Shown: positions 31,006 to 34,777 of the stretch, one piece after another
How the letters are laid out: every line of letters begins with the position of its first letter
Numbering within the stretch: the first letter of the stretch is position 1
Assembly: GCA_020637435.1 (NCBI GenBank)
Contig: JACJVW010000001.1
Span: forward strand, 150,237-214,236
Length of the DNA: 64,000 nucleotides
Direction of reading: 5' to 3'
Origin: Candidatus Woesearchaeota archaeon
GTDB lineage: Archaea; Nanobdellota; Nanobdellia; Woesearchaeales; JACJVW01
Translations under genes and position numbers: made by a program
The notes under the pieces: generated by a model
Database searches by the model: none
What the model saw: the letters and a program-made list of their open reading frames with translations, nothing else
Told to the model about the DNA's origin: nothing

Positions 31006-31650
31006 CTAAGGAATCTTAATTTCACTAAACGTTGAAACAACCTGGTCAGCTTCAGCTAATTTCTCTAAAGAGTAGGTAGTACCAATTCCAATGCAATACA
31101 TCCCTGCACGCTTTGCGGCGGTGATACCATGCGGTGCATCCTCAATGACCATACAATGTTCAGGAGCCACACCTAATTGGCGAGCACCGTACAAAAAAAT
31201 CGCAGGGTCGGGTTTTGAAATCCCACCAACATCATCAATACTAAACACCTGACCATTAAACAATTTATCAAGCAGCAAATGTCTATTGACATCCCGAAGG
31301 AGAGGCTTATGCATAGCTGTCGCAACACATGTTGCATACCTCGAAGAAACAGTTTGATAAAAATCTTCAAACCCGGGAACATAAGTTACTGAGGTACGAA
31401 ACATTTCCTGAACAATGTCCATTCGCTCTTGAGCAAGCATTACATCATCGCCAACAAGTGTCTCAAAACCAGCCAATTTTTTCATCAGTCGCACCCCGTC
31501 AACCAACGATTGACCAGTCAACAAAGGCTTATGTGTTGGACGGTCGTATACAATACCATACCTCTGCAAAAACGCAGTGGTTGCGATATCCCATACATGT
31601 TCAGAATCAACAACTACACCTTCCGCATCAAAAAGAATTGCCTTGATCAT
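31006..31650 (-). CDS. HAD-superfamily hydrolase (subfamily IA, beta-phosphoglucomutase-like)
   Basis: Motif I is ILFDAEGVVVDS. The sequence also contains ISKPDP and VIEDAPHGITAAKRAGM. Confidence 0.8.
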   Translation of the reverse strand: MIKAILFDAEGVVVDSEHVWDIATTAFLQRYGIVYDRPTHKPLLTGQSLVDGVRLMKKLAGFETLVGDDVMLAQERMDIVQEMFRTSVTYVPGFEDFYQTVSSRYATCVATAMHKPLLRDVNRHLLLDKLFNGQVFSIDDVGGISKPDPAIFLYGARQLGVAPEHCMVIEDAPHGITAAKRAGMYCIGIGTTYSLEKLAEADQVVSTFSEIKIP

Positions 31651-32118: not shown

Positions 32119-32188
32119 AATACTTTAAAATTGGGGTGTATTTAAATTACTTTTGACTAGATACCCTGCATTTAGTTATACTATTAGT

Positions 32189-32632
32189 TCATTCAGACTC
32201 CTTATAAGCAATCCAGAGAGGATGTTTTAAAGCAGATTTATCGCACAAACGAAATATTCTACCAATTAGCGTAACTGGTTTCTTATCTGTACCATGATTG
32301 AGAATACAATCTGCAATTTCCATTTTATTATCTGTAAACGCTGATAACGAAAGATTGTTTATTAATTTCAAACTTACCTGAGCGTGGCCTTTATCAAGGA
32401 TAGTTTTTCCAATATCATGGAATAATGCAGAGATTATACCAATAGCCTGCCAATTGGGACAGATTTCATCTATCTGCGTTTTGTAACAACAAGAAGTGAA
32501 TTCATCAAGAACGCATAAAGAATGCGTACGAATTGTACTTTTTTGGGTATGATTCTGAAATTCGAAAGAATCAAATATTTTCAAACATTCGCGGTACAAT
32601 ATTTGGTTTTGCTCACTAAAAAGATTTCTCAT
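32189..32632 (-). CDS. HD-domain phosphohydrolase (small, stand-alone)
   Basis: The HD motif ALFHDIGK is present, with upstream His (THSL) and downstream His and Asp (ILNHG, LCDKSA). It overlaps the radical SAM gene by 4 nt. Confidence 0.7.
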   Translation of the reverse strand: MRNLFSEQNQILYRECLKIFDSFEFQNHTQKSTIRTHSLCVLDEFTSCCYKTQIDEICPNWQAIGIISALFHDIGKTILDKGHAQVSLKLINNLSLSAFTDNKMEIADCILNHGTDKKPVTLIGRIFRLCDKSALKHPLWIAYKESE

Positions 32633-33606
32633 TTATGAACCTCCCAAAACTTGTTTTCATGATAAGAATCTTGAAAAACATCAATTAAATACCTCAATCC
32701 AATCTGAAACATCTTTGGGTGAGATGCATCAAGATAGACAGGTGATAATCTACAAGGTATTAACTGCTTATCAGAACTGTAAAAAATAGTATACAATCCT
32801 TCCTGGCAAGGAAGTGAAGAGCAAGAATCACAGAAATCGTCATGATACCTTGTTCCACTAGTGCTGTCCTTAATTCTAACAGTGTGTGATGAATTCTTTA
32901 ATTCATATTCAAGACTAGGTATCCCAAAAAAACGAGTGTATGTAATTTGCCGTGCATGCTTACTTCTTTTTTTTACTTGATTCCTAGCTCTTTCTAACGG
33001 AGTGTACAAAGACCCCCATTGTCCTTTATTACAGGTAGTTGAGTACATATCAAATAGCTTCAAATTAATTCCCAGCTCCGATGTCAAATCCAAGAGACTT
33101 TCAACTTGTCCAAGATTTTCTTCGGTAACCACCATTGCTAAACGATTTAAAATACCCCTTTTTGCAGTTTCTCTTATACTATTCATTGTCCTATCATACA
33201 TCCTCTCAGAAACACCACAAATAGAAGCAAACATATTTTTCTCAACTGCATCAAGACTGATTCTCAGATCTAGCCTCTTCAAAGAACTAAGATCTTCAAT
33301 ATATTTATGAATCATACTCCCATTTGTTGCCAGAGCATATTCCATATCAGTTTGGGTATCCAGGAATTTCATAACATCAATTGTGCCTTTGGCAATCAAA
33401 GGTTCACCCCCTGTAAGTCGAATTTTTGAGATCCCCTCCTGCTGCGCAATTTTCAATTTGGCGCAAAGATCATCTACATCAATGTCTTCTGAATTTGTTC
33501 CAAAACCTTCACCCATACCTCCCTCACCATCAGGACTACAATAATTACACCTGAAATTACACTTGTTAGTTACTGCAACCGTTAAATAAGGGACTTTGTG
33601 AATCAT
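32629..33606 (-). CDS. MoaA-like radical SAM enzyme
   Basis: The CX3CX2C motif lies in VAVTNKCNFRCNYCSP. IRLTGGEPL and ALATNG follow. The C-terminal Cys cluster FCDSCSSLPCQEG...LIPC parallels the auxiliary cluster region of MoaA. Confidence 0.8.
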   Translation of the reverse strand: MIHKVPYLTVAVTNKCNFRCNYCSPDGEGGMGEGFGTNSEDIDVDDLCAKLKIAQQEGISKIRLTGGEPLIAKGTIDVMKFLDTQTDMEYALATNGSMIHKYIEDLSSLKRLDLRISLDAVEKNMFASICGVSERMYDRTMNSIRETAKRGILNRLAMVVTEENLGQVESLLDLTSELGINLKLFDMYSTTCNKGQWGSLYTPLERARNQVKKRSKHARQITYTRFFGIPSLEYELKNSSHTVRIKDSTSGTRYHDDFCDSCSSLPCQEGLYTIFYSSDKQLIPCRLSPVYLDASHPKMFQIGLRYLIDVFQDSYHENKFWEVHK

Positions 33607-34487
33607 GCTCTTTCACCTAGTAAAGTGTGAAACCTCTTCCCCAAATGGGGATCCAGTTTAGTCGCATAAAAGAAACTTACGCTTCTCAGTATCCTGTTTT
33701 CCTCATTATAGTCAATTGCTTCAGAAATAAAGTTGAGATAATCTTGAATTTCTGGGGAATATGATCCGATAATCTCTTGATTCTCAAACCTAGCCAACAT
33801 TCGTTTTCTATGCAAATCTCTTAGAGATTCATATGCATCATCTTGACTAGAAATAGTTGGATATATGTCCTTCAAAAAACTGTATCTCTTCAATAATTTT
33901 CTCCTAATTTTTATTGGGTCATTAATTATATCGATGAGCTTATACCTAGTAGTTGTATTCTTTACAAAAAACTCAAAATTTTTCCCTTCAAAGTACTGAA
34001 AATTGTCGTTTGTATTAGAAGGCAATACACACCCTAAACATTCTATCTCAGTCTGAAAAACATGATCAAAAAAAGATCTCCCCAAGTTTGATACAGTAAT
34101 ACTGGAATAATGTTTAGAATCATTTTTTGTAAGACGGGTTATGGAATCAAAATCCACCAAATGATCAAGACCAAGAAGTTCATAATCAAACTGCCGGTGA
34201 AAAAACTCATCAGCAGAATATTCATTTGGAGAATCGTGTAGCTCCCTGATAGCATCCCTCCTTCTTTTGCGTTGCATTCGTAACTGGTCACGATATGGTT
34301 TATCTGATAATCTAGATGAAAGATAAAGGTACATTGGTATACTATCAACAAGAATTTGAGTGGAACCTCTATTGTAATTCAATTTAACAGAATTCGGAAG
34401 GTCATATACCTTCTTTATTTCAGACTGATGAAGGTCTAACATAAGTTCTCTGAGTGGTTTGTTTCCTTGGTAATTTTTCTGGTTCAT
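33603..34487 (-). CDS. hypothetical protein (first gene of AT-rich island)
   Basis: The start is ATG 34487, where the track used GTG 34502. It overlaps the radical SAM gene by 4 nt. No motif was recognised. Confidence 0.55.
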   Translation of the reverse strand: MNQKNYQGNKPLRELMLDLHQSEIKKVYDLPNSVKLNYNRGSTQILVDSIPMYLYLSSRLSDKPYRDQLRMQRKRRRDAIRELHDSPNEYSADEFFHRQFDYELLGLDHLVDFDSITRLTKNDSKHYSSITVSNLGRSFFDHVFQTEIECLGCVLPSNTNDNFQYFEGKNFEFFVKNTTTRYKLIDIINDPIKIRRKLLKRYSFLKDIYPTISSQDDAYESLRDLHRKRMLARFENQEIIGSYSPEIQDYLNFISEAIDYNEENRILRSVSFFYATKLDPHLGKRFHTLLGERA

Positions 34488-34746
34488 GATCAATAATCTC
34501 ACAGTAATCCCTTAGCTTTAATGTAGATTATCAAGAAGAAATTGAAGAATTTTCAAAACCAGAAAATTATATTGAAAATCTTTGGAACAAGAGTCCAGAA
34601 GAAATAACAATTAAGCAACAGTAGAAATGACCGAGTTGAATAGAATTGGGTAGTTAGTATGCTTAATATCCCAAAATTGATTTGCTCAATTTATAATAGC
34701 ACTACTTTGACTAAACAAAATCTATGAAGTGATTCCTTAAGTTAAG

Positions 34747-34759
34747 TTTATATAAAAAA
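34747..34759 (+). promoter_or_regulatory. TATA box of alaS (leaderless-type spacing)
   Basis: TTTATATAAAAAA is centred about 26 nt upstream of ATG 34778. Confidence 0.5.
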
Positions 34760-34777
34760 CCCCTTTCATTGGGCTCT

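Follow-up and report, generated by a model that had tools for sequence, protein, structure and literature searches.

A compositionally foreign three-gene cassette with a MoaA-like radical SAM enzyme in a Woesearchaeota genome, a putative nucleotide-modifying module with exchangeable partners

Background

MoaA, viperin, OxsB and QueE are nucleotide-remodelling radical S-adenosylmethionine (SAM) enzymes. Novel chemistry has come to light with each of them, and the products of two are antiviral. Here we describe a cassette of three genes which occupies positions 32189-34487 of a 64,000-nt window (the whole stretch of DNA that was analysed) from a metagenome-assembled genome (MAG) of Candidatus Woesearchaeota, a DPANN archaeon. 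The cassette encodes a protein of 294 amino acids without recognisable domain or fold relative, termed here the anchor, a MoaA-like radical SAM enzyme, and a minimal HD-domain phosphohydrolase. We tentatively read it as a mobile accessory cassette in which the radical SAM enzyme would modify a nucleoside polyphosphate by radical chemistry, with the anchor as a second subunit and the HD protein, or a NUDIX protein in its place, trimming phosphates. A radical SAM enzyme combined with a phosphohydrolase in a nucleotide-modifying cassette is of a known kind, whereas the anchor is genuinely novel. The defence repertoire of DPANN archaea is for the most part uncharted. CRISPR-Cas and restriction-modification systems are reported to be under-represented in this group (PMC12988326).

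Four described groups of systems other than MoaA itself can be compared with this locus. In the OxsB/OxsA system (oxetanocin-A), dAMP, dADP and dATP are acted on by a radical SAM enzyme together with an HD phosphohydrolase, and a nucleoside analogue with antiviral activity is formed (PMC9204698, PMC7074753). The likeness consists in a radical SAM enzyme, in OxsB one for purine nucleotides and here a putative nucleotide-modifying one, which is paired with a small phosphate-removing HD protein. However, OxsB is cobalamin-dependent, whereas the MoaA-like enzyme in the window lacks a B12-binding domain; a profile search of the PDB did not specifically link the HD protein to OxsA (OxsA was absent among the matches at E<=10), and the OxsAB pair has no counterpart of the anchor.

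Viperins and pVips belong to a radical SAM family neighbouring MoaA and convert nucleoside triphosphates (NTPs) to antiviral analogues; viperins are not known to have an auxiliary cluster. Their fold is similar to that of the window enzyme (TMq 0.62-0.64), which is also matched by the PADLOC pVip model (59 bits), but only weakly and within the radical SAM core (residues 10-188). An earlier note on this DNA, made from the sequence alone, had been reminded of viperin-type antiviral chemistry, and beyond the radical SAM core this likeness did not hold. Membership of the viperin family was rejected because the enzyme scores 48.4 bits against NF038283 (cutoff 180), is closer in fold to MoaA, SkfB and SuiB, and possesses an auxiliary cysteine cluster. 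In addition, pVips are single genes or linked to kinases and are not known to occur with an anchor or HD gene.

The anti-jumbo-phage system Ophion (OpnABC) consists of a radical SAM enzyme, a PHP phosphoesterase and a phosphoribosyltransferase (PRTase), and its action has been proposed to involve modified nucleotides (bioRxiv 10.1101/2025.09.30.679545). Compared by domain content, both systems join a further protein to a radical SAM enzyme from the viperin/MoaA neighbourhood and a phosphoesterase that depends on metal. In contrast to the cassette, the phosphoesterase of Ophion has a PHP instead of an HD fold, its third protein is a PRTase, and it is a system of Gammaproteobacteria; no PHP or PRTase domain was found by Pfam in the three cassette proteins.

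SkfB, SuiB and BlsE, finally, provide the second-best folds for the radical SAM enzyme (TM-score 0.52-0.64) and likewise possess an auxiliary cluster, located in a twitch-like domain at the C-terminus. A fourth cysteine inserted in the window enzyme would permit full ligation of this cluster as in twitch enzymes. The sequence scores are, however, far weaker than those for MoaA: models for maturases of ribosomally synthesised and post-translationally modified peptides (RiPPs) and other SPASM/twitch maturases in NCBIfam gave 39-59 bits at cutoffs of 265-850 (300-400 in the comparison with the twitch-domain enzymes). No precursor peptide or RiPP recognition element was seen; the upstream gene is that of the 294-amino-acid protein, and the 70-bp downstream spacer has no open reading frame (ORF). 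The earlier note had not recognised the architecture as a described one, and no description was found of the cassette as a whole in PADLOC-DB 2.0, of the anchor in NCBIfam and Pfam, or of either within the searchable literature, a corpus that is itself incomplete.

Gene organisation and base composition

All three genes are located on the minus strand, in the order anchor (34487-33603), radical SAM enzyme (33606-32629; 325 amino acids) and HD protein (32632-32189; 147 amino acids). Coordinates and ATG start codons agree in that both junctions are 4-bp ATGA overlaps, the feature by which the earlier note had recognised the chain, and the three genes are predicted to be translationally coupled. 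An alternative GTG start at 34502 would extend the anchor to 299 amino acids, but the alignment of the family favours the ATG at 34487.

The note had also considered the block to be foreign from hand counts of its base composition, which is borne out by windowed statistics. The GC content of the cassette is 0.349 compared to 0.455 in the rest of the window; windows of the same length outside the island have a mean of 0.455, a standard deviation of 0.013 and a minimum of 0.421, which places the cassette at z = -8.4. At third codon positions (GC3), the three genes have values of 0.270, 0.291 and 0.303, compared to 0.35-0.61 in 27 other genes of the window. Other genomes that carry the cassette mostly have a GC content of 0.28-0.39 (0.55 in L007; L numbers refer to the loci compared), and the gap between cassette and flanks there is at most about 0.07, compared to 0.106 here. 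As the GC content of the cassette matches that of its host in low-GC hosts, a donor with a GC content of approximately 30-33% is plausible, and as a large gap is found only here, the 45%-GC host represented by the window has most likely acquired the cassette horizontally and recently from a low-GC relative. Searches of the window for marks of integration yielded no integrase, no tRNA and no Rfam element, only short, chance-like repeat pairs. An empty site was not found; the sole other contig with an identical flanking PUA protein is from the same strain and has the same arrangement.

A divergent relative of MoaA

The family closest to the radical SAM enzyme by hidden Markov model (HMM), PDB sequence search and fold is MoaA (S. 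aureus, PDB 1tv7, 2fb2 and 2fb3; TIGR02666), yet the enzyme lies well outside it. TIGR02666 is its best NCBIfam model, but the score of 124.7 bits is less than half of the equivalog cutoff of 284, and the scores for TIGR02668 (112.6 bits, cutoff 325) and NF001199 (95.8 bits, cutoff 231) are below their cutoffs as well; other copies linked to cassettes reach 82-148 bits against MoaA models. In Pfam, the enzyme matches PF04055 (63 bits) and weakly PF13353. PF06463 (Mob_synth_C), which is present in nearly all true MoaA matches, is absent from all of the radical SAM proteins P0001-P0017. The enzyme is part of a compact clade of approximately 14 clusters with 53-58% identity, to which true MoaA is next with approximately 25-30%. 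The best PDB sequence match, S. aureus MoaA, covers only the N-terminal 180 amino acids, whereas with the AlphaFold2 model (predicted local distance difference test, pLDDT, of 86) MoaA is the top Foldseek match over the full length (TM-score 0.71, E 7e-17), followed by SkfB, SuiB and BlsE and then by the viperins.

At the level of single residues, a set of MoaA features is retained and another set is lost. The N-terminal CNFRCNYC motif (CX3CX2C; C16, C20, C23) and, within the SAM-binding motif IRLTGGEPL, the stretch T65-G-G-E-P-L70 are invariant in the clade alignment, and C259, C262 and C285 align with the three cysteines of the MoaA auxiliary cluster. Equivalents of the basic residues K69 and R71 of MoaA are kept, and K163 and R192 are conservatively replaced by arginine and lysine, respectively. 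The spacing of the auxiliary cysteines is CX2CX22C instead of CX2CX13C because of a 9-residue insertion, SLPCQEGLY, which adds a fourth conserved cysteine (C267). This insertion stands in place of the TRAR segment of MoaA (with R266 and R268), R17 is replaced by threonine, and the proteins end in ENKFW-containing sequences that lack the C-terminal Gly-Gly. The same three arginines that are lost here were singled out by the depositors of PDB 2fb2, the Arg17/266/268Ala mutant of MoaA. This pattern of retention and loss is common to all radical SAM enzymes linked to cassettes, including the divergent copies of L013, L021, L029 and L007. Thus, of the full MoaA layout claimed in the earlier note, the two N-terminal motifs and the C-terminal cysteine cluster stand, while PF06463, the three GTP-contacting arginines and the Gly-Gly are missing and a cysteine-bearing insertion is added. 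The residues kept and lost, taken together, suggest that the enzyme is a MoaA-derived paralogue which probably binds a nucleoside polyphosphate and is probably unable to recognise GTP in the way MoaA does.

The gene context differs from that of MoaA, too. The gene is always linked to an anchor and an HD gene, and no moaB, moaC, moaD, moaE or moeA was present within 6-8 kb (or up to the contig end) on either side of the loci L001, L003, L005, L006, L013 and L023, which extends the earlier observation that molybdenum cofactor genes are missing from the vicinity in the window. True MoaA identity was therefore rejected, as score, domain content, residues and gene context all fail.

Anchor protein and phosphohydrolase

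For the anchor, which the earlier note had described as a protein without recognisable domain, there was no match in Pfam, NCBIfam, PADLOC or PHROGs. A profile search recovered 17 homologues, and exhaustive HMMER searching of 1.84 billion clusters yielded a family of 24 representatives, all with E<=1e-10 and without a weak tail. Its structure is predicted with confidence (AlphaFold2, pLDDT 85, predicted TM-score 0.81) to be mostly alpha-helical with a small hairpin. In spite of this, Foldseek searches of PDB and BFVD came back without a match (best E 0.5, TM-score below 0.25). The anchor family is thus tiny and isolated, with a fold that, judged from the model, is apparently novel. Ten residues are invariant or nearly so across both types of cassette described below (R13, E103, D108, T180, N261, E262, R265, R268, S269, R293); all ten are present in the window copy, most are charged or polar, and along one long helix five of the ten follow an i, i+1, i+4, i+7 and i+8 pattern. 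This conservation would be in keeping with a protein that binds or converts a charged ligand, and less so with an inert scaffold.

The product of the third gene is a minimal HD hydrolase, as had been noted before. Its match to PF01966 is marginal but real (23 bits, cutoff 22; 22-24 bits for the sister copies), and the metal-ligand pattern H...HD...H...D is conserved (H37, H72-D73, H83, N112-H113, D131). Its best PDB profile match is 2pq7, a "predicted HD superfamily hydrolase" (E 0.004). It fell into no particular subfamily, as apart from this generic HD hydrolase the PDB profile search returned only a weak match to the HD domain of Cas10.

The position of the HD gene can be taken by other genes. 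At L021:3985-4386, a NUDIX protein of 133 amino acids similar to MutT, NudG and NudI is encoded in this position, and according to the ORF coordinates its gene and that of the radical SAM enzyme share 4 bp; by sequence this is a non-homologous replacement of one phosphohydrolase by another. In L013, an LD-carboxypeptidase (S66) gene is located where the HD gene normally sits (L013:3289-4179), and the operon of anchor and radical SAM genes is headed by a gene for a fused low-molecular-weight (LMW) phosphatase and CYTH (triphosphate tunnel) protein (L013:145-1317).

Distribution and exchange of partners

The cassette is rare but recurrent. It was found in approximately 15 uncultivated lineages, mostly Woesearchaeota, and the order anchor, radical SAM enzyme, HD protein with overlapping genes is retained in several independent lineages (L001/L002/L017; L003/L004/L022/L026; L005/L006; L020/L024/L025) as well as in L023. 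The flanks are unrelated between cassette lineages, and shorter contigs add partial copies. A survey of 185,579 species-representative genomes recovered only 6 loci, four of them labelled Woesearchaeota and two from "Methanosarcinales" MAGs. Among the cassette-bearing MAGs, it is the records of L019 and L021 that are titled "uncultured Methanosarcinales archaeon"; the remaining labelled sources are given as Woesearchaeota or as an "archaeon" without classification. The alternatives are a taxonomic label that cannot be relied on and a transfer of the cassette between phyla.

In one lineage the cassette is decayed: the anchor is cut to 240 amino acids, and the radical SAM gene is split into ORFs of 171 and 176 codons. 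The decayed cassette is identical in three assemblies (L020:4391-6676, L024:2532-4817, L025:6971-9256), and because the same lesions occur in three independent assemblies, they indicate genuine pseudogenisation and not an assembly error. The sparse occurrence and the decay in one lineage speak for the cassette being a non-essential accessory operon. Its components also diverge at different rates, with 36-43% identity for the anchor and 30-36% for the HD protein compared to 53-58% for the radical SAM enzyme. In L029, the gene order is permuted to HD, anchor, radical SAM.

A sister cassette (type K) was found in L015, L016, L027/28 and L030-L036. It lacks the radical SAM gene and instead encodes a partner of 237-254 amino acids upstream of a divergent anchor, followed by the HD gene (L015:513-2543, L016:5240-7325, L027:752-2782, L031:422-2474, L032:6225-8255, L034:6270-8201, L035:2988-5028). 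The partner has a weak match to DUF6206, a family on which no papers were found in the searchable literature, and the catalytic set of a protein kinase-like enzyme (VxK, E, DxKPEN, DTF). In metagenomes, type K is no rarer than the version with the radical SAM enzyme (type R), and the anchors of the two types share just 20-23% identity. The exchange of HD for NUDIX and of the radical SAM enzyme for a kinase-like protein indicates that the conserved core consists of the anchor and a nucleotide phosphohydrolase, and that this core, judged by sequence, combines with at least two alternative enzymes, of which the radical SAM enzyme is one. The triad itself is conserved in many lineages; the earlier note had missed this modularity.

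Two more distant loci were inspected as well. A protein of 441 amino acids encoded upstream of P0015, a radical SAM protein with 35% identity (L007), was considered as an anchor homologue but could not be shown to be one (14% identity, no match to the anchor HMM or Pfam). At L011:4753-7011, P0017, a more distant MoaA-like radical SAM protein with four cysteines, is encoded beside a HAD phosphatase and a divergent gene similar to nucleoside 2-deoxyribosyltransferases; the contig looks bacterial, with genes for a Mur ligase and a D-Ala-D-Ala ligase. The wider subfamily of four-cysteine MoaA-like enzymes may be nucleotide-linked in general.

Possible function

We propose the following scheme for the kind of substrate, the sequence of reactions, the assembly of a complex and the role in the cell. 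The radical SAM enzyme would bind an NTP via the retained basic residues and alter it by means of the 5'-deoxyadenosyl radical; the anchor would be the second catalytic or specificity subunit of a translationally coupled complex, and the HD protein would dephosphorylate either the product or a toxic intermediate. For such chemistry, OxsB/OxsA, viperin and Ophion are the documented precedents. A role in conflict, for example by an antiviral or antimetabolite nucleotide analogue, would be the most likely one, ahead of cofactor synthesis. The idea of nucleotide chemistry, already put forward in the earlier note, appears to be strengthened by MoaA being the nearest family, by the retained triphosphate-binding residues, by the replacement of HD by NUDIX in L021, by the CYTH and LMW-phosphatase protein of L013 and by the neighbours of P0017.

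Hints at conflict come from the genomic context and from the faster divergence of anchor and HD protein. Directly upstream of the type R cassette of L005 lie a dCTP deaminase defence gene (PADLOC dCTPase, 177 bits) and a SoFic/PDC-S04 Fic gene (L005:2667-5844), as well as a fragment of a type II methyltransferase gene. A further dCTP deaminase gene (PADLOC dCTPase, 140 bits) is located 3 kb from the type K cassette of L032 (L032:1937-3037), and a tyrosine recombinase (Phage_integrase, 44 bits) is encoded directly downstream of the type K cassette of L034 (L034:8326-9078). In L001, there is a weak ParE-type match (PF05016) approximately 5 kb upstream of the cassette. L016 is a contig of small ORFs on one strand with a single PHROG match of unknown function, and with just this one uninformative match it is not callable as viral.

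Several observations weigh against this scheme or parts of it. MoaA binds the purine through the open iron site of its auxiliary cluster, and C267 may fully ligate this cluster and thus close the site; substrate binding would then have to differ, and the argument for an NTP substrate would be weaker. The next-best folds of the predicted structure are the twitch enzymes SkfB, SuiB and BlsE, and the kinase-type sister cassette suggests a core that functions without radical chemistry, which would fit enzymes that modify the anchor about equally well. The HD protein is faintly similar to Cas3'', Cas3-HD and the Cas10 HD domain (E 0.008-0.06, far below threshold), and the model of the anchor, although confident, offers no mechanistic handle for lack of a fold match. 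As for defence and mobility, most cassettes are surrounded by housekeeping genes (in the window, and ribosomal genes in L021). PADLOC-DB 2.0 has no model that matches the anchor, only Cas3/Cas10 HD matches at E ~0.01 for the HD protein and the generic pVip core for the radical SAM enzyme. Two scans of IMG/VR with anchor patterns revealed no contig with an anchor, and neither flanking repeats nor a tRNA were found at the cassette in the window. The defence module proposed in the earlier note thus keeps the dCTP deaminase genes near two cassettes and the integrase beside a third, but not a viral or generally defence-like setting, and a role in conflict is plausible, though weakly supported. More specifically, the cassettes might represent a modular archaeal immune or antimetabolite system, in which anchor and phosphohydrolase are combined with an interchangeable, "warhead-making" radical SAM or kinase-like enzyme and the radical SAM product would differ from 3',8-cH2GTP and ddhNTPs; in this full form the proposal is possible but rather doubtful. 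Should the product turn out to be an unknown nucleotide analogue, the repertoire of antiviral and antimetabolite nucleotides would grow, and the anchor family, which is confined to DPANN archaea, would receive a first function.

The same chemistry might serve metabolism without any conflict, for instance by the synthesis or salvage of a special nucleoside, a pterin or a compound resembling a cofactor, of use to a DPANN cell that depends on a host. In known pathways from GTP to pterins, the phosphohydrolase is of the NUDIX (NudB) or the HD (MptB) type, and a NudB model is among the weak matches of the NUDIX protein of L021. The housekeeping neighbours in the window and in L021, Lrp/AsnC-type regulators, which are typical of metabolic operons, upstream of the cassettes of L021, L036 and L003, and PPDK-type genes adjacent to those of L005/L006 and L014 point in the same direction. 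However, the occurrence in 6 of 185,579 species, the recent transfer in the present case, the decay in one lineage, the swapping of partners, the fast evolution of anchor and HD protein, and the dCTP deaminase and integrase genes speak against such a pathway, and we likewise regard a purely metabolic role as a possible but doubtful explanation.

Modification of a protein instead of a nucleotide appears unlikely. The anchor would here be the substrate or effector; the radical SAM enzyme would modify it in type R and the kinase-like enzyme would phosphorylate it in type K, with HD or NUDIX in an auxiliary or resetting function. This would explain why a radical SAM and a kinase-like enzyme, the latter with the motif set of protein kinases, are interchangeable, and why the anchor is constant but co-varies with its partner; the translational coupling of the genes, the four-cysteine auxiliary cluster and the SkfB- and SuiB-like folds, which are typical of twitch/SPASM enzymes acting on peptides or proteins, also agree with it. 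On the other hand, MoaA and not a peptide maturase is clearly best by sequence and fold, with maturase models far below their cutoffs, the triphosphate-binding residues of MoaA are kept, the NUDIX replacement and the CYTH-phosphatase gene point to nucleotides, and the approximately ten invariant charged or polar residues of the anchor suit an enzyme or ligand binder better than a substrate. If both partners did modify the anchor, this would constitute a new system of protein modification, and either outcome is testable with three recombinant proteins: the cassette is a small, tractable set of a MoaA offshoot without guanine-recognition residues, a member of a family without relatives, and an HD/NUDIX slot.

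That the HD protein is a Cas3- or Cas10-like nuclease effector of a defence or toxin system, controlled by the anchor together with its radical SAM or kinase-like partner, is improbable: the similarity to Cas proteins suggests it, but all of these matches are far below threshold, the best PDB match is a generic HD hydrolase, and in L021 the slot is held by a NUDIX pyrophosphohydrolase and not by a nuclease. Least credible by far is a bona fide MoaA for the molybdenum or tungsten cofactor with two unrelated neighbour genes, an identity suggested by the best HMM and fold matches, by both conserved cysteine triads and by some sources labelling homologues "MoaA" or "GTP 3',8-cyclase", and contradicted by the low score and identity, the missing domain, the lost arginines and Gly-Gly, the cysteine-bearing insertion and the constant linkage to anchor and HD instead of cofactor genes.

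Neighbouring sequences

The island in the window is framed by non-coding DNA of the lengths given in the earlier note. A 70-bp AT-rich spacer without ORF (32119-32188) forms its low-coordinate edge, and a 290-bp AT-rich region (34488-34777), which is still inside the low-GC block, separates the cassette from the divergently transcribed alaS (start codon ATG 34778). The latter region contains no ORF and no Rfam match and is presumed to be the promoter region of the operon. A gene for a PUA-domain (nip7-like) protein follows downstream of the cassette. Two genes downstream of the island, a gene for a HAD-family hydrolase (31006-31650) has a GC3 of 0.349, below that of the other measured window genes (0.44-0.61), with a normal total GC content (0.428) and a location outside the low-GC block.

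Regulators of the Lrp/AsnC type with a helix-turn-helix domain are encoded immediately upstream of cassettes of both types (L021:932-1981, L036:1033-1965, L003:6470-6931) and may be optional regulators of the cassette. Two of them are long (310 and 349 amino acids) and are transcribed divergently; their sequences can be aligned from end to end (19% identity, E 5e-7). A calcineurin-like phosphoesterase is encoded directly upstream of the type K cassette of L034 (L034:5544-6059). In two unrelated contexts, fragments of PPDK-type enzymes occur at cassettes: PPDK_N and the swivel domain of phosphoenolpyruvate (PEP) utilizers are encoded as separate small genes in L005 and L006 (L005:5918-7014, L006:450-1546), and in L014 a PEP-utilizer corresponding to the C-terminal two-thirds of a PPDK-type enzyme is located between the anchor and HD genes (L014:1288-3105).

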